Positions 3,170 to 53,166 of a stretch of 64,000 nucleotides of DNA are shown in pieces. Positions within the stretch are counted from its first letter, which is position 1. Every line of letters begins with the position of its first letter. This DNA comes from Candidatus Saccharimonadia bacterium (GTDB taxonomy: Bacteria > Patescibacteriota > Saccharimonadia > UBA4664), in contig JBGTMQ010000008.1 in assembly GCA_041743505.1 (NCBI GenBank), forward strand, positions 69,183 to 133,182, read 5' to 3'. Below the pieces are notes generated by a model. It saw only the letters and a list, made by a program, of their open reading frames with translations. It made no database searches and was not told where the DNA came from. A program made the position numbers and the translations under genes.

Positions 3170-4030
3170 ATGACTCCTCAGGAAGCACTCGATTACATCA
3201 ATGCCGCCCACCCCGCCAAGGCCTATACGCTAAAAGCCCAGTTTAGTGGCGGCGAAAATCAGGGCGCGTTCCTCATAGTTGCCACCGACGGTACCCGGGA
3301 CGTTCTCAAGCTCAGCCGCAACCCGCTCTGGCTCAACCAGATCAAACGGGCCAAGGCCGCCACCGATCATCTGCGACCGTTAGGTTATCCGGCCCCCACC
3401 TATGGCCTTCTGGACGCTACTGATCGCGGCAGCTTCTGGATTCAAAACGAGCTTCCAGGCGAAAAACTCGTCAACCCGACAACCGAACAAATCCAAAACC
3501 TTATCAATACCATCGAGCTTCAAAAAGACCAGGTTATCTTTGAAGTTCAAGGTCAGGATTGGTGCTGGTACATTGGCAGTGTCGTTTTTCGTGGCGAATC
3601 CGGCCACGTTCGCGTCCTCATGCAATTCTCGACCGTCACCTCGGCTCTGGTATCCCGGGTTGAAGGCCTCGTGACGGGGTTAGAAGGCAAAGTTCTACCC
3701 AAACTCGATTTGGTCCATGGCGACTATAGTATCAACCAAATCCTAGCGACCGGACCCCAAATTACAGGCGTGCTCGACTGGGATCAGGCCGGCTATGGCG
3801 ACCGCACTCAAGATTTAATCGACCTCTGGTATTCACTCATCGATCTGCCTGAGCCGCGCGATCTGGTCATGAGCCATCTCCATACAATCTCTGACCCCCA
3901 GGTTATCAAGATCTTCGCCGCCTACAAAATGCTGGCAGTTATTGCATGGCACATCAATAAGATCCATGGCGATGTCGAAACTGCAGCTGCCCAGGCTAGC
4001 ACCGCGCTCGACCTGCTCGAAGCCATCTAG
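3170..4030 (+). CDS. phosphotransferase-family (APH / choline-kinase-like) small-molecule kinase
   Basis: Catalytic loop LVHGDYSINQIL (HGDxxxxN) followed by VLDWDQAGYGD (DxD metal-binding), in a 286-aa protein. Confidence 0.7.
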   Translation: MTPQEALDYINAAHPAKAYTLKAQFSGGENQGAFLIVATDGTRDVLKLSRNPLWLNQIKRAKAATDHLRPLGYPAPTYGLLDATDRGSFWIQNELPGEKLVNPTTEQIQNLINTIELQKDQVIFEVQGQDWCWYIGSVVFRGESGHVRVLMQFSTVTSALVSRVEGLVTGLEGKVLPKLDLVHGDYSINQILATGPQITGVLDWDQAGYGDRTQDLIDLWYSLIDLPEPRDLVMSHLHTISDPQVIKIFAAYKMLAVIAWHINKIHGDVETAAAQASTALDLLEAI

Positions 4031-4050
4031 ATATGCTAGACTAAACCAGT

Positions 4051-5442
4051 ATGAGTGGTCATTTCTACTTCATTGGTATCGCAGGCCATACGATTCGGGC
4101 GGTTGCGTTAGCGGTCCGCCAGCAAGGGCATGACGTCAGTGGCCTCGATGAAACAGCCGTGCCGCCTGGCAGTGATTGGCTCGACAAACAAGGCATCCTC
4201 TGGAGCCGGACTTTCGCGCCAGAGCAACTTGATGGGGTTTCAGCCGTAATTGTAACCGGCGCGCACGCTACCGAAGATCACCCGGCCATACTTGAGGCCA
4301 AAAAGCGGGGCATCGAAATTAAATCCTGGGCTAATCTCGTTGGTGAATTAACGACTGGTAAGCGCTCGGTCGTGGTGGCCGGCACTCATGGCAAGACCAC
4401 CACAACTTCATTGATTGCCTGGATCATGGAAGGCGCTGGGCACCAACCGGATTTCTTAATTGGTATCCAGCCATTCAACTTCGACTCAAGCGTCCGTCTA
4501 ACCGGCGCAGATTTGGTAGTGATGGAAGGCGATGAATATAAGGCCTCAGAGCTTGACCCCGTTCCCAAGCTACACTACTACCATCCCGATGTGCTGGTGC
4601 TAACCTCCATCGAACATGATCATCCCGATATGTACGCCGATCTTGAAGCTGTGGTTGGTGAGTTTACTAAAGTGGTCCAGGCGCTGCCATCAGACGGACG
4701 GCTCGTCGCCTGGTCGGGTAGTGAAACCGTGAAGCACATAGCACACAAAGCTAAATGCCAGGTCATAACGTATGGATTAGAAGAAGGCGATTACATCGCC
4801 CGCAACATTACCTACCTACCGACCGGCATCGAATTCGACGTCGAAACGAGCGAAGGTGTCATTGGCCGGATGGCCGTGCCTCTGTATGGCCGGCACAATG
4901 TCCTCAACGCATTAGCGGCCATAGCCGTAGCAGTAGGGGAAGGTCTGGTGCTCGATCAGCTACTAGACCCCGCCGCGACCTTCAAAGGTGCCTACCGTCG
5001 GTTTAATATACTGACCCGTCCAAAAGACCGAGTTACGGTCATTGACGACTATGCCCATCACCCCACAGAAATCCAAACTACCATCGAGGCGGCCAAATTA
5101 CATTTTAAAAATCAGCGGCTGGTGATAGTTTTCCGGCCACACACCTACTCGCGGACCAAAGCCTTTCTTGCCGAATACCAAGCCGCCTTCGATGGTGCCG
5201 GCACCATCTATATCACCGACATCGAGGGCGACCGCGAAGCCGCGCACCGGCAAACCGTTAGCGGGGCTGATATCGTTTCCGGACTTAGTAAAACAGCCGT
5301 GTTCGAGCCGGACCGAACCAAGCTGGCCGACCGTATAGCAGCCGATGCCAGAGCCGGTGACGTAGTGATATGCATGTCAGTATCCGGTTACCAAGATATC
5401 GCACCTGAGCTAGCTAGCTGCCTGAGCGAGGAGTTAGCATGA
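4051..5442 (+). CDS. Mur ligase family, UDP-N-acetylmuramate-L-alanine ligase (MurC) or Mpl-type
   Basis: N-terminal Rossmann start HFYFIGIAG...GHDVSGLD, P-loop GTHGKTTTTSLIAWIM, 463 aa. Confidence 0.8.
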   Translation: MSGHFYFIGIAGHTIRAVALAVRQQGHDVSGLDETAVPPGSDWLDKQGILWSRTFAPEQLDGVSAVIVTGAHATEDHPAILEAKKRGIEIKSWANLVGELTTGKRSVVVAGTHGKTTTTSLIAWIMEGAGHQPDFLIGIQPFNFDSSVRLTGADLVVMEGDEYKASELDPVPKLHYYHPDVLVLTSIEHDHPDMYADLEAVVGEFTKVVQALPSDGRLVAWSGSETVKHIAHKAKCQVITYGLEEGDYIARNITYLPTGIEFDVETSEGVIGRMAVPLYGRHNVLNALAAIAVAVGEGLVLDQLLDPAATFKGAYRRFNILTRPKDRVTVIDDYAHHPTEIQTTIEAAKLHFKNQRLVIVFRPHTYSRTKAFLAEYQAAFDGAGTIYITDIEGDREAAHRQTVSGADIVSGLSKTAVFEPDRTKLADRIAADARAGDVVICMSVSGYQDIAPELASCLSEELA

Positions 5443-11488: not shown

Positions 11489-11509
11489 CCGGTTACGGCC
11501 TACACGATC

Positions 11510-11537
11510 AGACCCGCACCTGGCGGGTCTTTTTGTT
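11510..11537 (+). terminator. rho-independent terminator after fusA
   Basis: AGACCCGC-acctg-GCGGGTCT followed by TTTTTGTT. Confidence 0.7.
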
Positions 11538-11539
11538 GG

Positions 11540-12286
11540 ATAAATTATTGCGCCCGCATGGGTTAATTGATAAAATTCTCAAACGCACGCTCAAGCGCGC
11601 TAAGTTGTGAGACTGGTTCGCCAGGAGCGCTGGCCTTCCGCGTTTGCTCACACCAGTTCCGAGCCGCTGACACGGCTCGGAACTGGCTACTGGAAAGAAG
11701 GCGCCTTGCTGTTGCGGTCAAGGCAGCCGGCACGCGTAGGTTCTAACCCCCCACCTCCGCGCATAAGCCGGCTCAAGCTTTCCTTGTAATATTCGAGACG
11801 GAGTCTGGATACTTGATGCGGGTAATCCAGACTCCTGGGCCGGAACCGGCTGTACGCTGCGTCGGAAGCAATGATCATGCGCTATCAATACTGCCAGTCT
11901 GCAGCTGGCTGCGGCGCAGCGTTTCATAGCAGCCATCGCGCACCCGGTTCCGGCCGCCAAGGTCGTGCGTTTGGTGATCGCCTCATCGCCAAAAACGCAC
12001 GCGGCGGGTGGACAGATTCACCCGCCAATCAAGGCGCATACTCCGATCCGCTTCTCGCCGGCGAGATGCGCCCATAGGGCGGAACGGCGTTAACCCCCAG
12101 CCGTTCCGCCCCCTTTCGCAAAACCACAGACCGGTTCACCTCGAGCCCACCATCGGCGAGGTGAACCTAGGGCGGGGCGGTAGCTTCCGCCACGTAACAC
12201 CACTACCGCCCCACCCGCCTTTCCTTGCTCCATCTAGTTCCGGATAGAGCATAGCCCGGTTAACAGCCGGGCTACTCCTTTTTAAG
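11540..12286 (+). other. ~750-nt GC-rich non-coding structured element between fusA and tuf (candidate ncRNA, unidentified)
   Basis: No credible ORF. Perfect 14-bp hairpin 11653-11686 and 11-bp hairpin 12078-12110. A ~14-bp imperfect stem lies at 12169-12217. The region ends in a hairpin plus T-run at 12251-12286. Confidence 0.35.
12251..12286 (+). terminator. putative rho-independent terminator closing the fusA-tuf non-coding element
   Basis: AGCCCGG-ttaacag-CCGGGCT followed by ACTCCTTTTTAA, immediately upstream of the tuf promoter. Confidence 0.5.
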
Positions 12287-12289
12287 GGC

Positions 12290-12319
12290 TTTACAATGAG
12301 GGCTCTCTCTGCCTATAAT
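12290..12319 (+). promoter_or_regulatory. sigma-70-type promoter for tuf
   Basis: TTTACA (12290-12295), 18-nt spacer, TATAAT (12314-12319). AAAGGAG RBS at 12476-12482. Confidence 0.55.
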
Positions 12320-12487
12320 ATGGAGGTTCCCGGTGGGAGGTATTTTTTATGTTAAAATGCTTTTCACTCAAAATGACAATAAATTGGTTCCCGAGGTAGA
12401 TAGCTAATGCGGCGCCTTTTCCGGCCTCCCGCGTGGCAGAGCTGCCACATTAACTCTTAACTAAACGGAATCACTAAAGGAGTATCA

Positions 12488-13669
<1,182 letters not shown>

Positions 13670-13693
13670 TTTAAGTATCCATCAGTTAATACC

Positions 13694-13726
13694 AAAAAAC
13701 GGGCCTCTCGGTCCGTTTTTTGGTAT
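13694..13726 (+). terminator. rho-independent terminator after tuf
   Basis: AAAAAACGGGCC-tctc-GGTCCGTTTTTT, a 12-bp stem followed by a T-run. Confidence 0.8.
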
Positions 13727-13783
13727 TTTACGAATATCATGGCATAATCGAGGCGGGTATGTACCTTCTATCGAGGAGCTAAC

Positions 13784-14185
13784 ATGATTCTCACGCTTGT
13801 ACTGGACGGCTCGCCATCGAATGTCATGGCGTTGGTGAGTATCGTCGCTACCCACGAAAACGCGCTGCCGGTGAAGGTTACAATGTCCATGGAGGCTCAA
13901 CCACCCGAGTATGATAGCGGGCTTGGCCCACAGGATATCCTGGCCATGCCAATCGAGGACCTGGACTTGTCAGTCCGGGCCTATAACAATATCAAGAGGG
14001 CTGAACTCGACACACTGCGTGATCTTGTAGCGTGGACACGCGCAGAGATTGCCATGTTAGGCCATAATGATGACCATGCAACTGGGATGAATGACCAGGC
14101 AACTACCGAGGTTGTCGAAAGGTTGACTCGGTACGGGCTCAGTCTTACGCCCGAACCCAAGTCACCAGCCGCCAGGGCCAAGTAA
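13784..14185 (+). CDS. stand-alone RNA polymerase alpha-subunit C-terminal-domain (alphaCTD)-like protein
   Basis: IEDLDLSVRAYNNIKRAELDTLRDLVAWTRAEIAMLGHN...TTEVVERLTRYGLSL aligns with the alphaCTD helix-hairpin-helix (E. coli [59 protein letters not shown]). The bona fide rpoA lies at 34778. Confidence 0.6.
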   Translation: MILTLVLDGSPSNVMALVSIVATHENALPVKVTMSMEAQPPEYDSGLGPQDILAMPIEDLDLSVRAYNNIKRAELDTLRDLVAWTRAEIAMLGHNDDHATGMNDQATTEVVERLTRYGLSLTPEPKSPAARAK

Positions 14186-14234: not shown

Positions 14235-14975
14235 ATGCCGGGCATCCACGACATCAACCCCATTGAACGCAAAATTCTCATCGCCAATCTCACCCAGTGT
14301 CTTGGCACCATGATGCTGGAGCACCAACAAAGTTTGCTTGAGTACTTTGTCGACGCCTTGCTCTCCTGTGGGGTCAAGCCCGAAGAGGTAATTTTCTACC
14401 GCCGTGACCCTTCCGGCACTGAATGGCACGGCATCCAACTTGGGAGCGGCCAAAGCTTCGGTCTCGGCGTTATTCACCAAGCCAGCGTACCTCGCTGGCT
14501 TGGTCTACGCATTGAAGCCCGGTCGATCAACTGTTTAGACGGGTCCTGGCTGTTCAGCTGGGATACGGTTCGAAACTGCCTTCGAGTCTCACGCAATAAC
14601 GAGCAAGACCATATCAAAAAGCCAGGGCTTGAGCACATCGTTAGTATTCTCGAGGATATTGTCGATGGGCCCCAGGTCAGCCGAAGCTTTTTGCTTCACT
14701 GGCTCAAGACCAAGCGTCAGTTAACCGACAAAGAGCTGGAGCAACAAAGCAATGTTGTTGATGCTTTCATCCGGTCAGCAGTGCTGCTCGGTTTAGGGCC
14801 CAAGCTACAGCCACTGACTGCGAACTCGTACGGTTTCGACCAAGGTATCTGGCATTGGCGCCGCACTCTCAAGCTAATGGTCGTAGGCTCCAACCGCCTG
14901 CTCCTCACCAGCCAAGGCCTACCGGTATCAAGCGCAGACACAGGGAGGAGATATGACGAGCTCACCCACAACTAG
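14235..14975 (+). CDS. hypothetical protein (246 aa)
   Basis: Long ORF in operon-like position. No recognisable motif. Confidence 0.45.
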   Translation: MPGIHDINPIERKILIANLTQCLGTMMLEHQQSLLEYFVDALLSCGVKPEEVIFYRRDPSGTEWHGIQLGSGQSFGLGVIHQASVPRWLGLRIEARSINCLDGSWLFSWDTVRNCLRVSRNNEQDHIKKPGLEHIVSILEDIVDGPQVSRSFLLHWLKTKRQLTDKELEQQSNVVDAFIRSAVLLGLGPKLQPLTANSYGFDQGIWHWRRTLKLMVVGSNRLLLTSQGLPVSSADTGRRYDELTHN

Positions 14976-15876
14976 CGGACTCGATATCGGAGCGCTTAAC
15001 GGGCATGCCGTCGGAATCATTCTCAAAGAACTAGTCCGGCGGGCCATGCGAATCATTCAAGCCAAAAGGCTAATCTTCGAGGCCAGAGCCAAGGACTCAC
15101 CGGGACGTCCAGACGACCTGGTAACCGATGCAGACGAAGCAGCTCAAGATAGATACGTCACTAGCCTGAAAGAGTGTTTTCCCGGCTTCGGCATCATCGC
15201 CGAAGAACATGATCACCGCGAACCTTGCACCATACCCGGCCGACAGCTCTATGCCATCATCGACCCGCTCGACGGCACCAAAGCCTTCGGTCGCCGGCAA
15301 TCAACCGGCGTTGCCACGCAGATCGCACTGGTTGATTTCGACACCGGACAGGTGTTATCGGCCTTCGTTGGCGACATCAACACCGGCGAGATCTACGGCT
15401 ATCGCCCAGATTCAATCAACGTCCACCGAATCACCGATCTGGTGCATTCGGAAAAATTGTCCGCGATCGGTCGGGGCCAACCGCTGACTAAGCAAGTTGC
15501 TATTCTTCGGGAACACCCCAGCACCTACAGTTGGCTTATTCGCCGCCTGGTCTCGCCGGCAACCAATGGCCTGGTCAAACATATCCTCATCGACAACGGC
15601 AGCATGTCGGTAATGTTTGCCAGACTCTGGAAAGGGGAAGTCGGCCTGCTCGTAAACGAGCCGTACAACGACACGCCCTGGGATTGTGCCCCTGTATTTG
15701 GTATCAGTCACACACTTGGGTTCGTCGCCCTTGCGCCAGATCCAAAGCGGGCGACCTTCGAGCCCTTCAGCGCCATCACCCCGCGTGAGGTTCGCTGGCG
15801 GAGTCATGAGGTCGTCTGGGTACATCAGACCCGCTTAGCCGAACTGCAGAGCTGGGCTGCCCGCCAACACATCTAG
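14953..15876 (+). CDS. inositol monophosphatase / CysQ family phosphatase
   Basis: VTDADEAAQ and IIDPLDGTKAF metal-binding motifs. Confidence 0.85.
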   Translation: MTSSPTTSGLDIGALNGHAVGIILKELVRRAMRIIQAKRLIFEARAKDSPGRPDDLVTDADEAAQDRYVTSLKECFPGFGIIAEEHDHREPCTIPGRQLYAIIDPLDGTKAFGRRQSTGVATQIALVDFDTGQVLSAFVGDINTGEIYGYRPDSINVHRITDLVHSEKLSAIGRGQPLTKQVAILREHPSTYSWLIRRLVSPATNGLVKHILIDNGSMSVMFARLWKGEVGLLVNEPYNDTPWDCAPVFGISHTLGFVALAPDPKRATFEPFSAITPREVRWRSHEVVWVHQTRLAELQSWAARQHI

Positions 15877-15889
15877 CTATCTACACCCC

Positions 15890-15931
15890 ATAGGGGCTCG
15901 CACATCCAGTGCGAGCCCCTATTTGACTTTT
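15890..15931 (+). terminator. rho-independent terminator after the IMPase-family gene
   Basis: ATAGGGGCTCGCAC-atcca-GTGCGAGCCCCTAT followed by TTGACTTTTG. Confidence 0.7.
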
Positions 15932-15998: not shown

Positions 15999-16325
15999 AT
16001 GGCCACAGCCGCAACCGAGAGTAAGCAACGTATTCGTATCCGTCTTAAGGCCTATGACTCCAAGGTCATCGACCAAAGTGCCAAACAAATTATTGAAACC
16101 GCAATCCGTACCGGCGCTACCGTTGCCGGACCTATTCCGCTCCCCACCGAGCGCAATGTCACAACCGTACTTCGCAGCCCGCATGTCTACAAAGACGCCC
16201 GCGAGCAATTCGAAATGCGAACCCACAAGCGCCTCATCGATCTCACCGATCCCACCCCCAAAACCATCGATGCCCTCATGAATCTCAACCTTCCGGCCGG
16301 CGTCGATATCGAAATCAAAATGTAA
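15999..16325 (+). CDS. rpsJ: 30S ribosomal protein S10
   Basis: [26 protein letters not shown]...[39 protein letters not shown]. Confidence 0.95.
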
Positions 16326-16402
16326 TTCTAGCTCGTCGAGGGCCCCCGCAAGGGGGCTTTTGAGTAAGAAAAACATTCGAAAACATAACTCACTTCTTAG
16401 CT

Positions 16403-17326
16403 ATGAACCCAAACTTATACATTCGATATATCCCAGTTGACGGCTCGACCGAGATCCCAATGGGTCAACTTGCGCGATCTCTTGAAGGCTTCGAGCAGGT
16501 GTTTCTTGAAATCGCAAAACTTTCTAAGATCAAGGGGGAGATGTCGGTATATGCGGCAGGCAGTGAGCGTGGCTCAGTCCTTATCCCTACTATCATACAA
16601 ATCATTACAAGCGGTCTACCTTTTGCAGATGTAAATCCTTTCTTAAATTTTCTAAAAGTAGCTGACCCTACAAGATATAAAGGTGCACTTGAGTTTTTAG
16701 GGACAGGGCACCGGACACTTAACGACTATTTTGCAAAAAATCCATTGGATCAAGCTACCCTCGAAACATTACTAGGGCTTTTTGTGGGGTACCTTATAGG
16801 GCATTCTCGTGGAATAAAAAGAAACATTGGCTCGCCCGAGATCGTCTCAAGGGTTCCAGTAGCATACGTGCGACCATTGAGAAAGCTTATTCATGAAGGA
16901 CGTTATAAAAAAGCATTCTCCCCGCTTATTGATGATACGGTTGACTCTATTGAGATTGGATCCCAACCCAAATCAGTCTTAGCTGTTGTGAACGATGAGA
17001 CATTGGAGGAATATTTAGAGGACAAGGAAATAATCCTGCCCCAATTTCAAGATGGCAAGGAAGTTAGGTTAAAGGCGGAACTGGTAAGTCTACAAAGTTC
17101 AAATGGTGAACACCTTGGCATCAAGATCCATGATTCAACACGAATAGTCTTGATGGCTTATCCTATTGTGGACACAACTACGGATGAATATATCGACTAC
17201 TACAAAAAGCACATCTTGATTAATGCCGCTGTGATTCGAGGATCAATGTACAAAAAACCCAAGCTTAAGCTGCTCAGTATCAAGCTTGAGCAAGAACAAT
17301 TGCCCAGCCATGAATTGGGGCAATAG
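16403..17326 (+). CDS. hypothetical protein (307 aa)
   Basis: ORF track only. Confidence 0.45.
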   Translation: MNPNLYIRYIPVDGSTEIPMGQLARSLEGFEQVFLEIAKLSKIKGEMSVYAAGSERGSVLIPTIIQIITSGLPFADVNPFLNFLKVADPTRYKGALEFLGTGHRTLNDYFAKNPLDQATLETLLGLFVGYLIGHSRGIKRNIGSPEIVSRVPVAYVRPLRKLIHEGRYKKAFSPLIDDTVDSIEIGSQPKSVLAVVNDETLEEYLEDKEIILPQFQDGKEVRLKAELVSLQSSNGEHLGIKIHDSTRIVLMAYPIVDTTTDEYIDYYKKHILINAAVIRGSMYKKPKLKLLSIKLEQEQLPSHELGQ

Positions 17327-17819
17327 GCGACAGTATAATGACCAACGTAAACCCACGGTATAAACTCAACTAAGCTAAGCAAGGCATCTTCCATGAGCGA
17401 ACAACAGATATTCATCATACCGACAAAGCATTAAACAACGTAGTCCAACAAATCAAAGATGACCAATGGAGTATGAAGCTGCCCGACTGGTTTCAGCTTG
17501 AAAGTCCTCAAAAAGATCTGAACTTACGCGATACCGGCAAAACCATCAGCGAAGTTGGCAATAAATTATGATGGAGATCTGCTAGGGGATAACCCTAAGG
17601 CCGCTTTTGCGAATATTGTTACTACAGCCACCACAGCGGTCAAAGGTCTGGTCCAAGGACTGTGGGACGAAGTTTCCTCGAGCCGGTAGAGGTCTCATCC
17701 GATGCGCCATTGCAAAACCGGCTCCTCGGTCTGTCAGGCCGCCGTCCGTAAGTCACTTGGACGTTTGACCTAGAATGCTATACAATCTCGCAGTGAGTCC
17801 GTTCATTCAACCGTAAGGA

Positions 17820-18488
17820 GTGATGATGAAGCGGATAGCACTTTTAGTACTTGGATTCGCGTTGTTGCTAACCGGCTGCACCGGTCAGGACGTCAACCCA
17901 TCGTCAGACCAAAGAGTAGCACCGAATGCAATCAGCCCCATCGACCCCGAACCGGGTCTACCGCCTTCACCGTCAAAGCATGCCGACTGCAACGAGAAAG
18001 ACCCGCCGGCGGGCAGTATTCCTGTCGAAGGCGGCGGTTCAATTCCTATTCACCACACGACAATGATTTGCGGCGCTCCGTTTGAGGACTATGTTGATCT
18101 CACCAGTATGGCCAATGGCTTGCCCGGTTGCAAAAACGTCCCGGCCAGAACCAACCCGGATCTTGGACGGCCATGCGACTATCCACTACGGCGAGAGCCA
18201 AATTGGCGTTCGGCGGCCTACACCAAGGATGAAGTACCGTGGAGTCCAGTCGAGGGTCAATTCCTGGCTAACGGCGAGGTTAACCCACCGCTGCACATCA
18301 GGTGCCAGGTGATTGGCGGAGTTACTACGGACGACCGCGGCATTGGCTCCAATATCTGGAACCTAGTCGATGACCGCCGGCTAAAAGGCAAAATCGGCTA
18401 CCTTCCAGACACCGTCACCAGTCCAAATCACGATGGTGGCCGGGGCTGGCGGAACATTCCCTGCACCGTAGATCAACTACAGCCATAA
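17820..18488 (+). CDS. putative lipoprotein
   Basis: Signal peptide MMMKRIALLVLGFALLLTGC with an LTGC lipobox. AAGGAG RBS. Confidence 0.6.
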   Translation: MMMKRIALLVLGFALLLTGCTGQDVNPSSDQRVAPNAISPIDPEPGLPPSPSKHADCNEKDPPAGSIPVEGGGSIPIHHTTMICGAPFEDYVDLTSMANGLPGCKNVPARTNPDLGRPCDYPLRREPNWRSAAYTKDEVPWSPVEGQFLANGEVNPPLHIRCQVIGGVTTDDRGIGSNIWNLVDDRRLKGKIGYLPDTVTSPNHDGGRGWRNIPCTVDQLQP

Positions 18489-18553
18489 CCAACGACCATC
18501 AGCGGTAGAGGATTCGACCCCCTCTGCCGCTGTTTTATTTACTGGTCAGAACA

Positions 18554-18784
18554 TTAATAATCTGTGGCCATAACATGCTCGTAAGCCTCAGTGAAATCGT
18601 ACCAGCTTTGGCTGCCAAACTCATTGCGAAACGTTTCCCAGGGCTCATTCTCACCGATCCGCAACCCTAGCCGGTCGGCAATTGCCCCTAGTTCCTCGGG
18701 TTCAAGCATCTCAACCTTAGATTCAAAATCTGCCCACTGCTCGGGCGTACAGTCATTCTCAATTATTTCGCGGCTATCAATCAT
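18554..18784 (-). CDS. hypothetical small acidic protein (76 aa)
   Basis: ORF track only. Confidence 0.35.
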   Translation of the reverse strand: MIDSREIIENDCTPEQWADFESKVEMLEPEELGAIADRLGLRIGENEPWETFRNEFGSQSWYDFTEAYEHVMATDY

Positions 18785-18882
18785 AACCTAGTTGTCTCAA
18801 ATTTCACTGCAAATGTCCATAAATTTCACCAGCGAATCTTAAGTATCACTCTGCTAAGATAACCAAAACAAGGAGCGTCAAT

Positions 18883-19446
18883 ATGCGGGAAATCGAAGCG
18901 TTTGTCAGGTCCAATCAATTGTTTAGCAAATTCGTGGCTCAGATCCAAGACAACCAGTGGGACGCACCCACGCCTAACACCGAGTGGAACGTACGCGATC
19001 TAGTTGCCCATGTCGCCGATGAAAATCGCTGGATTCCGCCTATGCTAGGCGGAAAACGCATAGCCGAAGTCGCCGGTGATTTTCGAGACGATGCCTTGGG
19101 CGCCGACCCCAAAGCCGGTTGGGGCAAAAACGCTAAAGCCGCCGAGGCCAGCATTAATAAGCTAACAGATCTCGGCCATCCCGTGCATTTGTCTTATGGC
19201 GATGCACCAGCTTCCGAATACCTTCAACATATGACCATCGATCATGTCATACACAGCTGGGACCTGGCGCGGGCCATCGGTGCAGATGAACAATTGGACG
19301 AGAAGTTAATCCAGACCGTCTATGATTGGCTCGAACCCATAGCCGAAAGCTGGCGAGCCTCCGGCGCATTTGGACCAGCGGTGCCTACCCCGCCTGACGC
19401 CAGTCTGCAAACCAAGCTATTGGCCTTATCTGGACGTGAAGTCTAG
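18883..19446 (+). CDS. DinB_2 / mycothiol-maleylpyruvate-isomerase N-terminal-domain-like protein
   Basis: WNVRDLVAHVADENRWIPPMLGG... (HxxD) pattern of the DinB/YfiT four-helix family. Confidence 0.55.
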   Translation: MREIEAFVRSNQLFSKFVAQIQDNQWDAPTPNTEWNVRDLVAHVADENRWIPPMLGGKRIAEVAGDFRDDALGADPKAGWGKNAKAAEASINKLTDLGHPVHLSYGDAPASEYLQHMTIDHVIHSWDLARAIGADEQLDEKLIQTVYDWLEPIAESWRASGAFGPAVPTPPDASLQTKLLALSGREV

Positions 19447-19567
19447 TCGTGTTTAGCATTATTTACAAGTTAATATTGACTGTCAACAAAATATTGTAAG
19501 AATAACCAATAACACAACACCCTTCGGTCAATATGATAATAGCGGCACCTAACGCTGGGAGGACATT

Positions 19568-19840
19568 ATGGAATATCGGGATCAAAACGAGTACGAGCGT
19601 CGCATTGAAATAATTCACGAGATCGCTACACAGCACCCCGAACTTCTAAAGTCAATCACGGCTGAGGACCGCGAGCAGCTGCAGAAATACTTCCTTGATG
19701 CCAGAAAGCAACCCAAGCGGACTGAATACCGGCACAATCTCATCAAAGAAACCCCAACCATCGAGCTATCAGCTAATAAAGCCTATGAACGGTTCCTGGC
19801 TGAAGCCGGCTTACCGGAAACATTGCCTCACCAATCGTAA
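19568..19840 (+). CDS. hypothetical protein (90 aa)
   Basis: ORF track only. Confidence 0.35.
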   Translation: MEYRDQNEYERRIEIIHEIATQHPELLKSITAEDREQLQKYFLDARKQPKRTEYRHNLIKETPTIELSANKAYERFLAEAGLPETLPHQS

Positions 19841-19891
19841 ATACTACCCAATCTGCATACAAAAACCGAACAAGGATGTATAATCATTAGC

Positions 19892-21106
19892 ATGAATCTA
19901 TTCGGTGAAGCACAGCGGCCGTTGGCTGACCGGGTCCGCCCGCGCACGCTCGACGAGTTTATCGGTCAGGCTCAAATAGTGGGGGAGGGCCAGTTCTTGC
20001 GCACTCTCATCCAGAGTGGCCAGCCGACCTCGCTCATTCTCTGGGGCCCACCTGGCACCGGCAAGACTACCCTAGCCCGGATCATTGCCGCTGGTGGCGA
20101 CTTTGCCTTTGAGGAAATATCGGCCGTCACCAGCGGCTTACCCGACGTCAAAAAGGTCATTGAGCGCGCAGCCCAGCGGCGCAAAGTCGGCCAAAGCACC
20201 GTGTTGTTCGTTGACGAAATTCACCGCTTCAACAAGGCCCAACAAGACGCCTTCTTGCCACACATGGAAAATGGCACCATTATACTCATCGGCGCCACGA
20301 CCGAGAACCCATCGTTCGAGGTCATCGGACCGTTGCTCTCGCGCAGCCGCGTCGTGGTGCTAGAATCACTCAGCCCCGACCAGTTAACGGCCATTGTTGA
20401 ACGGGGTATGCGAGAGTTGGATGGCAAAACCATCGAGCCCGAAGCCGCCCGCCTGCTGGCCGAGCTGGCCGGCGGCGATGCCCGCGTGGCCTTAGGCGGC
20501 CTGGAGACCGCCGCCGGCCTAGCCGATAGCATCACCCCCGACACCATCAAGCAAGCCATGCAAAAAACCAGCCTCAAATACGACAAAGGCGGTGAATACC
20601 ATTACAATCTCATCTCGGCCTTCATCAAGTCCATGCGTGGCGGGGCAGTCGACGCAGCCTTGTTTTACCTGGCCCGCATGCTTGAAGCCGGCGAAGATCC
20701 CAAGTTTATTGCCCGCCGTATAGTTATCTTCGCCTCCGAGGACGTCGGGCTGGCCGATAACACCATGCTTCCCCTGGCCGTGAGCACGTTTCAGGCTATC
20801 GAACGAATCGGCCTACCGGAGGGACGCATTATTTTGAGCCAGGCCACCATTGCCATGGCCAGATCCCCCAAAAACCGCGACGCCTACGACGCCATCGCTG
20901 CCGCCACCACTGCCGTCCGTGACAACCCATCAGCCGAGGTGCCCCTACATTTGCGCAATGCGCCCACCGGTCTCATGAAACAACTCGAATATGGCAAAGG
21001 CTACCAATGGAAGCCAGGGTTTGAGCATGAGCAGGGCTTTTTGCCAAAAGAGCTGACCAATCAGCATTTTTACCGCCCACATCCAGACAAACGGGCGGCT
21101 TTGTGA
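19892..21106 (+). CDS. rarA: replication-associated recombination protein A (AAA+ ATPase RarA/MgsA)
   Basis: LILWGPPGTGKTTLARIIA Walker A, VLFVDEIHRFNKAQQDAFLPHMENG, 404 aa. Confidence 0.9.
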   Translation: MNLFGEAQRPLADRVRPRTLDEFIGQAQIVGEGQFLRTLIQSGQPTSLILWGPPGTGKTTLARIIAAGGDFAFEEISAVTSGLPDVKKVIERAAQRRKVGQSTVLFVDEIHRFNKAQQDAFLPHMENGTIILIGATTENPSFEVIGPLLSRSRVVVLESLSPDQLTAIVERGMRELDGKTIEPEAARLLAELAGGDARVALGGLETAAGLADSITPDTIKQAMQKTSLKYDKGGEYHYNLISAFIKSMRGGAVDAALFYLARMLEAGEDPKFIARRIVIFASEDVGLADNTMLPLAVSTFQAIERIGLPEGRIILSQATIAMARSPKNRDAYDAIAAATTAVRDNPSAEVPLHLRNAPTGLMKQLEYGKGYQWKPGFEHEQGFLPKELTNQHFYRPHPDKRAAL

Positions 21107-21186
21107 GTTCTAACAAAGCCGCCCTGCCATCTGGTACTCTATGCTTCAGACGCTAGTATTCTCATTATCGTCGCTAAGGAGGCAAC

Positions 21187-21723
21187 ATGGACTTATCAGG
21201 CAAGACCGTGGCGATACTGGCCACCGGCCTATTCGAAGAAAGTGAGCTAGTCGAGCCCAAAGCCGCGCTGGACCGGGCAGGCGCCAAAACCGTAATCATC
21301 GCACCGCATGACGGCGAAATCCAAGCTCTGCGCCACGCCGACAAAACCATCACAGTTCCCGTAGACGAAGTCTTAAGTCGCGCCGCTCCTGAAGATTACG
21401 ACGCCGTAGTCTTGCCCGGCGGCGCTATGAACGCCGATCATCTGCGCATCGACAAACACGCCCAAGAATTCGTCCGCACCATTGACGAAGCCGGCAAACC
21501 AGTGGCCGCCATCTGCCACGCGCCGTGGCTACTGATATCAGCCAAGCTCGTCGAAGGCCGTAACATGACCAGCTACCACACCATTGCCGATGACCTCATA
21601 AATGCCGGCGCCAAGTGGACTAACCAAGAAGTCGTGGTAGACGGTAACTGGGTCACCTCCCGCAAACCGGCCGATATTCCAGCCTTTAATGACGCAGCCA
21701 TTAAGCTCATTGCCGAAGCGTAA
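21187..21723 (+). CDS. DJ-1/PfpI family protein
   Basis: Nucleophile-elbow AAICHAPWLL, 178 aa. Confidence 0.85.
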   Translation: MDLSGKTVAILATGLFEESELVEPKAALDRAGAKTVIIAPHDGEIQALRHADKTITVPVDEVLSRAAPEDYDAVVLPGGAMNADHLRIDKHAQEFVRTIDEAGKPVAAICHAPWLLISAKLVEGRNMTSYHTIADDLINAGAKWTNQEVVVDGNWVTSRKPADIPAFNDAAIKLIAEA

Positions 21724-21744
21724 CCAGTATGGTTTAATAAGGGC

Positions 21745-21999
21745 ATGAAGAAAGCCCGAACCAAAACAACGATCCGTGAAGCCGATAGTGTCTATTTTCT
21801 CAAAATCCTGCTGTTCTTTTTGTTAAGCACGATCTGGATTAAACATAACGGCTATCTAGTGTTTCCGTTGGGGTTGGCTCTGGGCCTTCTCTTTACCCGG
21901 TCAGACCATTTTGTCATCGACCGCAAAATCGAATATGCCATTTTAATCATCGGCACCCTCTTGAGCGCCTCAGTTGGCGGAATCTGGCTAACGTTCTAG
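21745..21999 (+). CDS. small hypothetical membrane protein
   Basis: 84 aa with two hydrophobic helices. Confidence 0.3.
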   Translation: MKKARTKTTIREADSVYFLKILLFFLLSTIWIKHNGYLVFPLGLALGLLFTRSDHFVIDRKIEYAILIIGTLLSASVGGIWLTF

Positions 22000-22000
22000 T

Positions 22001-22204
22001 CTAATAGTCCTCAAGCACACGCTGGATAGTGATCCACATAGTCAAAGCCATCAAACCAAATTGAGCCAGGGCTAATGCAACCCGCACTGGCGTGTAGACT
22101 GGTGGCACTAGGCCATATAAAAAGCCAATTGCAATAATAACGCCCAACAAATACATAAGCTGGCGGGCATACGTGAGGCTGGTGTATGAGTAATCTGGTT
22201 GCAT
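22001..22204 (-). CDS. small hypothetical membrane protein
   Basis: 67 aa with two hydrophobic helices. Confidence 0.3.
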   Translation of the reverse strand: MQPDYSYTSLTYARQLMYLLGVIIAIGFLYGLVPPVYTPVRVALALAQFGLMALTMWITIQRVLEDY

Positions 22205-22398
22205 ATAAATCCTAACTTATTTGTATCAATCCTCTATTGTATCACATAACATTACATTTGTCAATAAAGTCATCCATCTGAGTCTCGCCATCTCCCCATC
22301 TCTCACGGGTGACGTCACTGGAGGGCTGCCGACAAACACCAATCGTTAGCGACTGGTTTCGAGCTAGCCCCTGGTTAGTGAGAAGTTACTGCTTAAGA

Positions 22399-22442
22399 AA
22401 AAAGTAAGGCCCCGCCGCTCTATAGTGAGAGCGGCGGGGCCG
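22399..22442 (-). terminator. rho-independent terminator for the minus-strand gene at 22523-22885
   Basis: Perfect 13-bp GC stem (22409-22421 / 22430-22442). On the minus strand it is followed by TTACTTTTTT. Confidence 0.65.
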
Positions 22443-22522
22443 GATAGCGGACGTCTAACGGTTACCGGAGTTGCCTTCGATGTGTCGTCTGGACGGTCAA
22501 CCCAGCTTGTTGGGTAAAAAGG

Positions 22523-22885
22523 TCACGCTGAAATGGGTTGCGTCGCTTCTGTGGTCACACCAAGCTCAGCGTGGGCGAACCACTTGCCCGAGAGGCGGTT
22601 GGCTTCTCCGCCCCGAGCTGCCAGTGACGTTCCATCGGGGAGGCCGATGGTGATTTGCTGCGGGTGCCCGACCGCCTGGGCGTTTGAGGCGGCACAGTGC
22701 GACGAGTGGTTGATTTCGAACAGGCAGTAAGAGTCCGGATACTGGCAAGCCGTCTGCGGGTCGTGAATGTTTACAACCACGAACGGGCCGTTGCCATACC
22801 AGCTGACAGGGTGAACGCAGTCATCAAGTAGGCTCGGATTCCAGACAACGGTGTCGCCAGTCTTGAATAGAGTCGCGGTGCTCAT
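22523..22885 (-). CDS. hypothetical protein (120 aa)
   Basis: ORF track. The terminator hairpin lies directly downstream. Confidence 0.45.
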   Translation of the reverse strand: MSTATLFKTGDTVVWNPSLLDDCVHPVSWYGNGPFVVVNIHDPQTACQYPDSYCLFEINHSSHCAASNAQAVGHPQQITIGLPDGTSLAARGGEANRLSGKWFAHAELGVTTEATQPISA

Positions 22886-23027
22886 TTGAGTCTCCTTGAG
22901 AAGACGGGTTGTGAAGGCAGCTCGGCATTAGACGGGACATCCCGCCGAACATCTCTACATTATAACATAAAGCGAATCTAAACACAAGTCTTACAGCCTC
23001 TTCAAACGCTCCATCAAAACATTCTTG

Positions 23028-23057
23028 TTGACAGAGAGCCATCAGATAAGCTATAGT
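23028..23057 (+). promoter_or_regulatory. sigma-70-type promoter upstream of rplC, leading the S10-less S10/spc operon
   Basis: TTGACA (23028-23033), 18-nt spacer, TATAGT (23052-23057). A ~130-nt leader follows before rplC. Confidence 0.5.
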
Positions 23058-23188
23058 CGCATGGTATTTGTCGGTGCCTATGCATCACAACTCGCAAGTT
23101 TCAGCTAGGACATGAGCAGGTCTGAGTAACATCAGATACCACTCGTAGCCTGGAGCTTGTTTTTGCCAGACTTTCTAACAGGGTAACC

Positions 23189-30572: not shown

Positions 30573-31073
30573 ATGGCGATTGTTGAGCAACCCAAAGAAT
30601 TTGAAGAAAAAGTCATTAATATTGACCGCGTCGCCCGCGTAGTCAAAGGGGGCCGCCGGTTCCGCTTCCGCGCCACGGTAGTGGTAGGAGATGGCAAAGG
30701 CCGGGTTGGCGTCGGCGTCGGCAAAGGTTCCGAGGTCATGACTTCAATTGCCAAGGCTGTATCACGAGCCAAGAGCCAAATGATCACCGTGCCCCTCAAA
30801 GACCATACCATCCCGCACGAGATTCAGGTCCGTTTTTCCGGCGCCCAAGTACTACTCAAGCCTGCCTCGCCCGGAACCGGCGTCATAGCCGGCGGTGCGG
30901 TTCGCAATGTAGTTGAGGTAGCAGGCATCCGTGACCTCTTGACCAAATCGCTCGGGAGCAGTAATAAAGTAAATAACGCTTATGCCACGGTTGTAGCGCT
31001 ATCACAGCTTAAAGCCGCCCCGGTCAAGGCCAACAAAAAGGCCGCAGCTGTTACCGAAGAAATAGCGGCTTAG
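30573..31073 (+). CDS. rpsE: 30S ribosomal protein S5
   Basis: [37 protein letters not shown]. Confidence 0.95.
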
Positions 31074-31083
31074 GAAACGAATC

Positions 31084-31581
31084 ATGAAGATCCACGAATT
31101 AAGTCTCAAATCCGCCAAAGACCGCAAACGTATCGGTCGTGGTATTGGCTCAGGGTACGGCAAGACTGCCGGCCGAGGAACCAAAGGCCAAAATGCCCGG
31201 ACCGGTGGCGGTGTCCGTATCGGCTTCGCCGGCGGTCAAAACCCATTGGCTAAGTTGCTCCCTAAAAAGCGCGGCTTCAAAGCCATTTTCCCGGTAACAA
31301 ACCAGGTGGTCAGCATCGGTCAACTCGACCGTCTCAAGGATGGCGCCACGATCGACAACGAAGCCCTGGCTAAAGCCGGCTTCATCAAGAAGGCTGACGA
31401 GCGCGTCAAACTGCTCTCCGGCGGCGAACTGACCAAGAAACTGACTGTTAAAGTACAGGCAGCTAGCGCAGCCGCAAAGTCCGCCGTCGAAAAAGCAGGT
31501 GGCACATTTGAGCTAACAGAACTTCCGAAGGTTGCTAGCAAAAAAGCCACTCGTAAAACAGAAGATACCTCTGCCTCATGA
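31084..31581 (+). CDS. rplO: 50S ribosomal protein L15 (directly follows S5; no L30 gene between)
   Basis: GRGIGSGYGKTAGRGTKGQNARTGGGVRIGFAGGQ. Confidence 0.95.
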   Translation: MKIHELSLKSAKDRKRIGRGIGSGYGKTAGRGTKGQNARTGGGVRIGFAGGQNPLAKLLPKKRGFKAIFPVTNQVVSIGQLDRLKDGATIDNEALAKAGFIKKADERVKLLSGGELTKKLTVKVQAASAAAKSAVEKAGGTFELTELPKVASKKATRKTEDTSAS

Positions 31582-34777: not shown

Positions 34778-35713
34778 GTGTTACATCCCATTCAGCTCCC
34801 AGAGCTTAAACCGGTCCGCGAGGAACAAAATAAGGCTACATTTGCCATTGAGCCTCTGTATTCCGGTTACGGCATGACCCTCGGCAACTCATTGCGCCGG
34901 GTCATTCTATCGAGCCTTGGCGGTGCCGCCGTAACGGCCGTTAAGATCGACAGTGTCGCCCATGAGTTCTCGACTATTGAGGGGGTCAAAGAGGACGTTG
35001 TTGAAATCATCCTTAATCTCAAAAAACTACGGTTTCGCGTCTATTCTGACGAGCCGCAATTCCTGGTTTTGACTGCCTCCGGCAAGGGTGAGGTGACGGC
35101 AGCAAGCATCAAGACCACCTCAGACGTGGAAATCGTAAACCCAGATCAGCTCATTGCTACCCTGGACAATGCCAAGGTCAAGCTCGGCATGGAAATCAAG
35201 GTCGAGAAAGGCCGCGGCTACGTACCAGTCGAGAACCGCGAAAGCGAAAAGCTCGAGGTAGGTATGATTGCTGTCGACGCCCTCTACTCGCCAGTCCAGC
35301 GCGTCCGCTACAATGTCGAGAATACCCGCGTCGGCCAGATGACCGATCTGGACCGCCTCGTGCTTGAGGTTGAGACTGACGGCACCATAACGCCGGCCGA
35401 AGCCATCCGCCAGGCCGCCGAGATACTTGTTGATCACTTCCAGGTAGTAGCCGGCAACCCGGTTGGCGCCTCTGTCGGTGCCCAAGCCGACGAGCGGACC
35501 GAGGCCGGTGTAGCTAAGATCAATGTTGAAGAAGTCAACTTGACCCCACGCACCACCAATGCGCTCATCAATAACGATATTAAGACCGTCAAGGACTTAC
35601 TGCGCCTAAGCGACCAGGAGCTACGCGAGCTCAAGGGCTTTGGCTCCAAGGCCTATGACGAGGTTAAAGAAAAGATCGCAGAGCTCGGCTTTGCGACGGA
35701 GAAGGTAGACTAA
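34778..35713 (+). CDS. rpoA: DNA-directed RNA polymerase subunit alpha (GTG start)
   Basis: GYGMTLGNSLRRVILSSL..., with a C-terminal HhH alphaCTD. Confidence 0.95.
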   Translation: MLHPIQLPELKPVREEQNKATFAIEPLYSGYGMTLGNSLRRVILSSLGGAAVTAVKIDSVAHEFSTIEGVKEDVVEIILNLKKLRFRVYSDEPQFLVLTASGKGEVTAASIKTTSDVEIVNPDQLIATLDNAKVKLGMEIKVEKGRGYVPVENRESEKLEVGMIAVDALYSPVQRVRYNVENTRVGQMTDLDRLVLEVETDGTITPAEAIRQAAEILVDHFQVVAGNPVGASVGAQADERTEAGVAKINVEEVNLTPRTTNALINNDIKTVKDLLRLSDQELRELKGFGSKAYDEVKEKIAELGFATEKVD

Positions 35714-52100: not shown

Positions 52101-53166
52101 AACCTCAAGATTCGTTGCAGGCCTCAGTACAAGCTCAACCTGGTATGGTTTCACAGGTGCCAGTAGTGCGCCCGCCTTTACTCGAAATGCCAATTGGGAT
52201 ATTACAGAGAAGTATATGTCGCTCCCTGGCGGCGTACTATTAACCGTACGTCCCGGCCAAACTGGTGATAACCAAAAAGTATTCTCACTTCCCAACACTC
52301 ATGGTGATGTGATGGCTACCACCAACACGAGCGGCAACCAAACTGGTACGTTTAGCTACGATCCGTTTGGACAGACCCTAAGCTCAAGCATACCCGACAA
52401 TGCAGCAGGAGATGTCTCATTTGCTTGGGTTGGCCAACATCAAAAAGCCACTGAAGCAGATTTGGCGCTTAGGCCGATCCAGATGGGAGCTAGGGTGTAC
52501 ATTCCTTCACTTGGGAGATTCTCGAGCACAGACTCTGTAGAGGGTGGTGCCGAGAACGCCTATGTCTACCCTCCCGATCCAATTAATCTGTACGATATCG
52601 ATGGGAAGAACACGGCAGAGGAGGCCCTGGATGGTATAGGCGCCAGCGCAAATAGTGTTGGCTGGAAACTCGACGCACTCATGGTGGCCGTAGGTGTCGC
52701 ATGTGTAGCCAGCGGAGTCGGGGTAGTCATTTGTGGCGTAGGAGCCGCAACCGGTCTAGTTGTAACGACGGCTCAAGCATACAACAAGCACAATCGAGAT
52801 CCTGGCGCTGCAGCTGGAGAATTATTTCTATCAAGTATTTTCTGGGCAGCAGGTGGACCAATAGCTAAAAACATTGCTAAAATCAGCATCTCCTACATTG
52901 CTCCTGTCATTGCGCAGCGAGTAAAGCAGGTGGCGCCCGCAACGCCAATACGTGCAATTAATCGAACAGTGGCTACTGCAAAGCAGACTATACGGAACTC
53001 AATAGGTTATGCTGCAACCCTGTACGATGCGGCACGCCATATACCAGCTGCAAATCGGAACTATAATTATGGTGGAACACCCTATATGACAAGCCCATGG
53101 AGCGGGTATGCGGAGGTAAAAGAAATGATTCTGAAACACTTGGCTAATACGTGGAGAAGGGTATAA
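46102..53166 (+). CDS. giant polymorphic toxin: N-terminal signal-anchor, three PA14 domains, RHS/YD-repeat shell, RHS core ending DPINL, C-terminal glycine-zipper toxin domain
   Basis: GGAGG RBS. PA14-like segments start at ~48181, ~48658 and ~50269, each with the FLVRW(S/T)GY...DDGVR(I/M/L)(Y/W)(I/V)(N/D)(D/N) pattern. Many YD repeats ([29 protein letters not shown]...). RHS core tail ...[39 protein letters not shown] at ~52480-52605. The C-terminal 186 aa contain [26 protein letters not shown]. Confidence 0.9.

Follow-up and report, generated by a model that had tools for sequence, protein, structure and literature searches.

In the 64,000-nt window analysed here, a stretch of a contig from a Candidatus Saccharimonadia bacterium (GenBank assembly GCA_041743505.1, contig JBGTMQ010000008.1), the gene found between tuf and rpsJ encodes a free-standing protein of the fold of the RNA polymerase (RNAP) alpha subunit's C-terminal domain (alpha-CTD). 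The alpha-CTD is the main landing pad for RNAP recruitment by bacterial activators and UP elements. This 133-aa protein, hereafter the orphan, carries no alpha N-terminal domain (alpha-NTD), retains the first hairpin and the acidic patch of the alpha-CTD, displays a remodelled second hairpin, and is predicted to be the first product of a three-gene transcription unit. A tentative reading, which we consider possible if short of probable, is that the orphan would be a trans-acting docking module of the alpha-CTD type, i.e., an adaptor working with partner proteins.

The open reading frame (ORF) lies exactly where a preceding sequence-only reading had placed it, and the alpha-CTD similarity proposed there for its C-terminal part holds. 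Indeed, the orphan scores 40.8 bits (E = 1.9e-10) with the Pfam model PF03118 (RNA_pol_A_CTD), whose gathering cut-off is 23.8; the match is significant, and the outcome that would have refuted the proposal, a profile search without such a match, did not occur. This local match is limited to aa 51–90, corresponding to positions 9–48 of the 67 in the profile; the NCBIfam rpoA models align aa 39–124 with the C-terminal end of RpoA, and phmmer pairs aa 49–124 with the RpoA CTDs in the PDB (best E = 7e-8), the only insertion being one of 7 residues. In addition, the profile-profile comparison (hhalign) of the small family of the orphan with an alignment of RpoA CTDs gave a probability of 99.7%. 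The domain is C-terminal, as had been proposed, and its size is about 76 residues (aa 49–124) and not about 65.

The structure model points to the same conclusion. The AlphaFold 2 (AF2) model of the orphan has a mean predicted local distance difference test (pLDDT) score of 72.6, which rises to 88–90 across aa 50–90, with helices at aa 49–53, 57–60, 64–72, 78–82, 86–90, and 104–116 forming a compact fold with two helix-hairpin-helix-like units. In Foldseek, the model superposes on the solved alpha-CTDs 1lb2, 3n4m, 9dvt, and 1z3e with template modelling (TM) scores of 0.8–0.9 (target-normalised) and root-mean-square deviations (rmsd) of 1.4–3 Å. A profile scan of the six-frame translation of the window detected only two alpha-CTD modules, those of the orphan and of rpoA.

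The orphan is not an RpoA protein. PF03118 is the sole Pfam domain found in its 133 residues, in which the alpha-NTD domains PF01193 and PF01000 were not detected, and its scores with the NCBIfam rpoA equivalog models are 21–41 bits as compared to cut-offs of 228–523. Its gene is also located outside the rpsM-rpsK-rpsD-rpoA-rplQ cluster, which holds, as had been noted, the full rpoA of this genome with its own CTD (PF01000, PF01193, and PF03118; positions 34778–35713), 20.6 kb downstream of the orphan and followed by rplQ (L17). Since the orphan lacks the alpha-NTD, it is no RNAP core subunit and must act off the enzyme.

The description of the orphan as an rpoA paralog is correct as far as the alpha-CTD homology is concerned, but not in the sense of a recent copy of the resident gene. 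The identity between the orphan and the resident RpoA CTD is only 26% vs. 35–45% with the CTDs of Actinomycetota, Armatimonadota, and Clostridia, and BLASTP gave no significant match between the resident rpoA and the orphan; a recent duplication of the resident rpoA is ruled out on these grounds. We also considered that the N-terminal part of the orphan could be what is left of the strand and helix with which the alpha-NTD ends, i.e., that the gene could be a 3′ fragment of rpoA, an idea prompted by the similar spacing and by the Foldseek alignments with full-length alpha, which span 108–124 columns. This idea was discarded because hhalign finds the CTD alone, profiles of the N-terminal part give a probability of 0.6%, and these profiles miss the NTD end in 11 diverse RpoAs.

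The residues exposed by the alpha-CTD are only partly conserved in the orphan. Their roles, given here in the numbering of E. coli alpha, derive from alpha genetics and from the 1LB2 and 3N97 complexes. The first hairpin of the orphan retains R265, N268, and K271 (R65, N68, and K71, respectively), and the acidic D258/D259/E261 patch (the “261 determinant”) has its equivalents in E58, D59, and D61. As for the second hairpin, in RpoA the residues N294, G296, K298, and S299 constitute the phosphate backbone clamp. Both HMMER and structure-anchored alignments show that the canonical N-[LF]-G-[KR]-K-S sequence is replaced by G-M-N-D-Q-A in the orphan, with the substitutions of N294 by G101, G296 by N103, K297 by D, K298 by Q105, and S299 by A106. 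C269 is replaced by N, and two of the six residues of the “265 determinant” (R265, N268, C269, G296, K298, and S299) are kept. Among the four positions highlighted in the sequence-only reading for DNA binding (R265, N294, G296, and K298), R265 is conserved, as is N268, while the other three have changed; therefore, the canonical UP-element clamp is only half present.

Close to the remodelled hairpin, the orphan carries an acidic 7-residue insertion within a predicted loop (aa 91–103; pLDDT ~63). This insertion site is empty in 211 of the 226 related alpha-CTD modules that we compared (from the 95 nearest relatives; see below), so that the orphan is atypical in this respect. Furthermore, the net charge of its CTD is −7, whereas those of its ortholog, of the resident RpoA CTD, and of the E. 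coli alpha-CTD are each −3. The replacement of the second hairpin, the acidic insertion and the charge make tight binding to UP elements by the orphan alone unlikely. On the other hand, as the first hairpin and the acidic patch are intact, the alpha-CTD contact surface for the minor groove, sigma region 4, and activators would still be on offer.

The relatives of the orphan were collected by an exhaustive HMMER search of 1.84 billion protein representatives, which yielded 278 proteins (representative clusters) at E ≤ 1e-3. The top matches are non-RpoA proteins with two to eight alpha-CTD repeats; overall, the nearest relatives contain from one to eight such modules, and small phage proteins are also close. 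PF03118 is found in all 95 nearest relatives, sigma-70 region 4 in 21, and tetratricopeptide (TPR) repeats in approximately 13, and the RpoA N-terminal domain does not occur among the 25 commonest families in this set. The combinations with sigma-70 region 4 and with TPR repeats represent the usage expected of a portable module for docking to DNA or to proteins. In the 226 modules, R265 is kept in 82%, N268 in 72%, G296 in 71%, K298 in 44%, and S299 in 52%.

Two further observations concern these relatives. Fusions of a sigma-70 region-4 helix-turn-helix (HTH) with one or more alpha-CTDs are frequent both in bacteria (e.g., P0006 and P0142; 21 of the 95 nearest relatives) and on viral contigs, where three such loci (L172, L173, and L185) have their match at approximately 4001–4100 in each; sigma region 4 and the alpha-CTD touch each other in RNAP at UP/−35 promoters. 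Moreover, two proteins (P0005 and P0013, the source name of the latter beginning with “Scyton”) are alpha subunits in which two or three near-identical alpha-CTDs follow the NTD in tandem, if the assemblies are right.

The N-terminal part of the orphan defines a much narrower group. An alignment shows that this element, consisting of a predicted strand, helix, and strand, is common to the orphan and to four other proteins (P0002, P0004, P0010, and P0011), these five being the only ones among the 1.84 billion representatives. Their signature, which the orphan displays, is an M-x-L-x-L-x-L-x-G-S start, a helix, a V-x-V strand, and a degenerate first CTD. The single true ortholog is P0002 (130 aa; 60% identity over the full length), while the three others are more distant and have two to four alpha-CTDs after the N-terminal element; also in their first CTD the second hairpin is degenerate. 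None of the five proteins departs from R265 or N268 at the equivalent positions, and G296, K297, K298, and S299 are changed. The element was not found in the viral loci of IMG/VR, and no ortholog of the orphan was detected among 185,579 species genomes (one per species): the 80 loci returned by this search were all ordinary rpoA (two were checked). Apparent plasmid matches in Clostridioides difficile were rejected, as they look like chromosomal rpoA regions filed as plasmids. Indeed, these “plasmid” records of approximately 100–150 kb (H11 and H15–H25; e.g., NZ_CP149721.1, 81–87 kb) hold the chromosomal infA-rpmJ-rpsM-rpsK-rpsD-rpoA-rplQ genes.

Comparison of the codons of the orphan and of P0002 gives a ratio of nonsynonymous to synonymous substitution rates (dN/dS) of 0.16 overall, with 0.34 for codons 1–35 and 0.09 for the CTD, dS being saturated. 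Together with the conserved Shine-Dalgarno (SD) sequence, these values indicate that the long frame is the right one and that the protein is functional. The orphan gene is real, lineage-specific, and under purifying selection, and it looks expressed.

The features of the locus are collected in Table 1. From a promoter-like site downstream of the tuf terminator to a terminator upstream of rpsJ, the orphan is predicted to open its own transcription unit, followed by the genes of a 246-aa protein and of a protein of the inositol monophosphatase (IMPase) family. The 246-aa protein has no match in Pfam, NCBIfam, PADLOC, or PHROG, and only one other homologue (P0286; 61% identity) was found among 5.8 billion proteins. 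The IMPase-like protein is recognised by PF00459 (E = 1.2e-16), matches IMPases in the PDB with a best E of 6e-7, and displays the DPxDGT and WD motifs; nevertheless, it is very divergent and stays far under every NCBIfam equivalog cut-off. Its best NCBIfam match (CysQ) reaches 42.6 bits vs. a cut-off of 228.8, and it scores 20.5 bits vs. a cut-off of 332 with the SuhB/IMPase model NF008027, so that it belongs to the family but not to the SuhB equivalogs; its match with the E. coli SuhB of the PDB has E = 6e-4. The arrangement of the operon is found again in the contigs of a relative, which display in succession the end of tuf, a counterpart of the tuf terminator hairpin, the TGgCATAAT −10 at the same place, GAGGAG with the same 5-nt spacer (these three signals in L001), the orphan, a 245-aa homologue of the second protein, and an overlapping IMPase-like gene. 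The order of the three genes is shared by L001 and L086, and the overlap of the second and third gene is kept at 23 nt in L086; the terminators are likewise conserved in the relative. Rfam gave no match in or around the operon.

Table 1. Coordinates of the orphan, of its operon, and of the flanking genes in the window.
Feature	Position	Strand	Remarks
tuf	12488–13669		Flanking gene of the orphan operon
tuf terminator hairpin	13688–13727	+	18-nt arms, 94% complementary, then T run; separates tuf from the operon
Promoter-like site	13720–13748	+	TTGGTA, 17 nt, (TG)CATAAT extended −10; consensus scan, match only
Shine-Dalgarno sequence	13773–13778	+	GAGGAG, 5 nt 5′ of the orphan ATG
Orphan coding sequence	13784–14185	+	133 aa, ATG start, stop codon within the span
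N-terminal element	13784–13885	+	aa 1–34; predicted strand 3–7, helix 11–23, strand 30–34
Linker	13886–13927	+	aa 35–48, ~14 aa, predicted disordered; pLDDT <50 at aa 34–39
alpha-CTD fold	13928–14155	+	aa 49–124; R65/N68/K71 (= R265/N268/K271) in the first hairpin
7-residue insertion	14060–14080	+	GHNDDHA, aa 93–99, directly 5′ of the remodelled second hairpin G101-M-N-D-Q-A106
Second gene	14235–14975	+	246-aa protein, no recognisable family
Third gene	14953–15876	+	Divergent IMPase-family protein, 307 aa; overlaps the second gene by 23 nt
Operon terminator	15890–15922	+	Perfect 14-bp stem, 5-nt loop, T-rich tail
rpsJ	15999–16325		Flanking gene of the orphan operon

The placement of the orphan within the str/S10 cluster, which had been regarded as unusual, turned out not to reflect a functional link. 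Relatives were recovered by scanning metagenome contigs with the S10 of the window. In one of them (L089; 91% identity for both EF-Tu and S10), the gap between tuf and rpsJ is occupied by an ORF of 326 aa that is unrelated and has no Pfam match; in another (L090; EF-Tu 87% identity) the two genes are 29 nt apart, and in six more distant relatives the gap is 74–150 nt. None of the three operon genes is present in the tuf-rpsJ loci of L089, L090, or these six relatives. Since the gap differs or is closed in the relatives, the slot is variable and the operon constitutes lineage-specific cargo, not a part of the str/S10 system. As for the boundaries of a possible mobile element, the search gave a negative result: neither an integrase nor phage genes nor meaningful direct or inverted flanking repeats were detected around 13.6–16.1 kb. 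The GC content of the operon (0.53–0.57) is like that of its flanks, and the orphan does not reside on a phage or prophage, as the phage orphan alpha-CTDs do.

Some peculiarities were observed elsewhere in and around this cluster. On the other side of rpsJ, approximately 6.9 kb of unrelated genes (16326–23188) separate it from rplC, namely a low-GC (42%) 307-aa ORF with a weak DUF7946 match, a lipoprotein, a DinB/MDMPI-like protein, MgsA, and DJ-1/PfpI; in L089, too, rpsJ is followed by unrelated genes and these by MgsA. Upstream of tuf, the 1-kb gap that follows fusA (11489–12487; core 11590–12270) contains no convincing ORF, has no Rfam match, and bears no similarity to the same gap in the relatives; it folds far better than shuffled sequences on both strands (z = −8.9 and −8.6) as a chain of about 8–10 long near-perfect hairpins, and may represent an RNA with structure, palindromic elements in an array, or the remains of a decayed element. 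Further on, the L15 gene starts 10 nt after the S5 gene (30573–31581) and the L30 gene is absent from the ribosomal cluster, an arrangement typical of candidate-phyla-radiation bacteria. Finally, a toxin- or adhesin-like giant lies downstream of the tRNA-Trp region, encoded by an ORF of 2354 aa (46102–53166) in which RHS repeats accompany three PA14 domains, and the only Pfam match of a 428-aa ORF (55811–57097) is to sigma-70 region 4 (aa 317–370), with region 2 not detected; the latter is perhaps a regulator of the HTH type or an atypical sigma-like one.

If the orphan is an adaptor, it would work in trans, using the surface of the first hairpin and of the acidic patch after the loss of the phosphate clamp, and its task would be to bring partner proteins to DNA or to the transcription machinery, by tethering or by recruitment. 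The first candidate partners would be the 246-aa and the IMPase-like proteins predicted to be co-transcribed with it, while the N-terminal element (aa 1–34) may supply self- or partner-association, for instance by dimerisation. Several points weigh against this reading. That R65 and N68 are so strictly conserved may just as well point to genuine binding of DNA. The second hairpin has a somewhat ambiguous register, since G101, which lies two positions earlier, may itself be the hairpin glycine if the loop is longer by two residues; HMMER aligned the ortholog in this manner. For the N-terminal element, the confidence of the model is low (pLDDT ~60–70), and AF2 gave no usable model of the 246-aa protein (pLDDT 41.6, with two sequences). 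The partners themselves are named from operon membership alone, seen in two lineages only, and the literature searched offered no study of an orphan alpha-CTD against which the reading could be calibrated.

The sequence-only reading had suggested a decoy as well as an adaptor. As a competitive decoy, the free alpha-CTD would titrate activators, sigma region 4, or UP DNA away from RNAP and so lower the activity of alpha-CTD-dependent promoters, a role that suits a complete fold with the equivalents of R265, N268, and the 261 patch and, in the absence of an NTD, necessarily off the enzyme. However, with 26% identity to the resident RpoA CTD, the surfaces recognised by the resident activators are not copied, and the domain has a remodelled second hairpin and a more acidic character. 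Moreover, a gene missing from the closest relatives is not part of the core regulation, and a simple decoy would not need the two lineage-specific genes of its operon; we regard this role as rather unlikely. Alternatively, the orphan could be a minor-groove DNA-binding regulator or a nucleoid-type protein, dimerised by its N-terminal element so as to mimic an alpha dimer with its two tethered CTDs, and controlling its own operon or A/T-rich sites. The invariance of R65, N68, and K71 in the family would be explained in this way, and the conservation of R265 (82%) and N268 (72%) among the 226 modules suggests that contact with DNA is generally selected; the succession of N-terminal element, flexible linker, and CTD resembles the layout of the alpha subunit, and fusions with a sigma region-4 HTH are common among the relatives. 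This hypothesis, likewise rather unlikely, is weakened by the change of G296, K297, K298, and S299 to N, D, Q, and A, together with the acidic insertion and the net charge of −7; in addition, dimerisation is only inferred, and no repeated operator-like sequence is seen around the promoter.

The small phage proteins raise a different hypothesis, namely that the operon is phage or mobile cargo for takeover, anti-takeover, or defence, in which factors attacking the RNAP alpha-CTD would meet the alpha-CTD copy as a mimic of their target (a sensor or decoy), with the two downstream proteins as the effectors. A small alpha-CTD preceded by a short N-terminal part is frequent in phages: several proteins of 111–139 aa in BFVD are named “RNA polymerase, alpha subunit, C-terminal”, the alpha-CTD protein of Bacillus phage Goe8 is encoded in the early region, and 27 loci in IMG/VR contain such modules, including proteins of 84–185 aa, sigma-region-4 fusions, and large fusions. 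The variable slot with different cargo in the relatives and the near-uniqueness of the 246-aa protein among 5.8 billion would also fit, whereas the absence of integrase, flanking repeats, and GC anomaly would not. The only PADLOC match of the operon proteins is a weak one (E = 0.0028) between PglW and the alpha-CTD part, which does not place them in a defence system; the partner genes have neither PADLOC nor PHROG matches, and no viral protein carries the N-terminal element. Such an origin is distinctly unlikely. A related reading, in which the free alpha-CTD would be the bait of a surveillance or counter-takeover module for phage or toxin factors, with the 246-aa protein and the IMPase-like phosphatase as the response arm, is very unlikely. 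Directly upstream of rpsJ (nusE), the presence of IMPase-family and alpha-CTD-like genes in one operon also recalls the Nus system. In E. coli, SuhB, the alpha-CTD, and NusG-NTD share binding sites on the AR2 domain of NusA (PMC6614797), and SuhB, a member of the IMPase family, joins the rrn antitermination complex with NusE/S10 (PMC6614797; PMC6614801). That the two proteins of the window cooperate in an antitermination-type complex is highly improbable, given that the IMPase-like protein is no nearer to SuhB (20.5 bits vs. 332; E = 6e-4) than to CysQ or HisN, that the adjacency to rpsJ is not conserved in the relatives, and that a terminator stands between the operon and rpsJ. Finally, we give next to no credit to the idea that the gene is a functionless relic, in decay, from the 3′ end of an rpoA that was duplicated or transferred: the C-terminal tail GLSL-x-PEP does resemble the C-termini of RpoA in some other phyla, but two lineages keep an intact frame (60% identity; dN/dS of 0.16), the SD and the promoter-like site are kept, and the N-terminal element has no homology to the alpha-NTD end.

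Taken alone, the orphan opens no long-standing question, and the organism is uncultured. On the other hand, a separate landing pad made by a cell or a phage could redirect or blunt the recruitment of RNAP, and free or re-used alpha-CTD modules are numerous, as indicated by the 278 representative clusters, of which the best matches are not RpoA. With its own operon and an ortholog for comparison, the orphan would be a compact single-module case for a first biochemical test. If the bait hypothesis were true, the operon would give a glimpse of many more portable alpha-CTD modules, so far unstudied, by which transcription is rewired in trans, such as the sigma-region-4 fusions, the TPR fusions, and the phage orphans.

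Compared with known systems, the orphan comes close in size and layout (short N-terminal part plus CTD) to the phage alpha-CTD proteins, such as A0A6J5M7I6 and others in BFVD (111–139 aa), QDP42789.1 of Bacillus phage vB_BmeM-Goe8 (210 aa), and those of Rhodococcus phage Finch and of the IMG/VR loci L170, L175, L183, and L193. These proteins share 15–38% identity with it and differ in their N-terminal parts, which are zinc ribbons and others and do not include the beta-alpha-beta element; furthermore, the gene in the window is chromosomal, with no phage genes nearby. The domains AR1 and AR2 of NusA, (HhH)2 domains that bind the alpha-CTD, SuhB, and NusG-NTD, are acidic, helix-hairpin-helix-based docking domains that swing freely on a flexible tether, as the CTD of the orphan would be, and the interactions of AR2 have been published (PMC6614797). 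The likeness is a functional analogy only, since the orphan matches neither HHH_5 nor NusA models and belongs to the alpha-CTD family, not to the AR family. With the RpoA alpha-CTD itself (PF03118; 1LB2, 3N4M, and 1Z3E), there is significant homology and the fold is the same (TM 0.8–0.9; rmsd 1.4–3 Å), with R265, N268, K271, and the D258/D259/E261 patch represented; the differences are the absence of the alpha-NTD, the 7-aa insertion, the replacements in the second hairpin, the charge (−7 vs. −3), and the N-terminal element. By HMMER, the nearest relatives are the non-RpoA proteins of the PF03118 class, annotated as [quoted passage not shown]. This is an annotation name only, for which no studied member was found, and the literature searched yielded no functional study of orphan or stand-alone alpha-CTD proteins. 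The orphan is a further example of this annotated, uncharacterised kind of protein; while most members of the class have tandem modules or extra domains, it consists of a single module with a rare 7-aa insertion.

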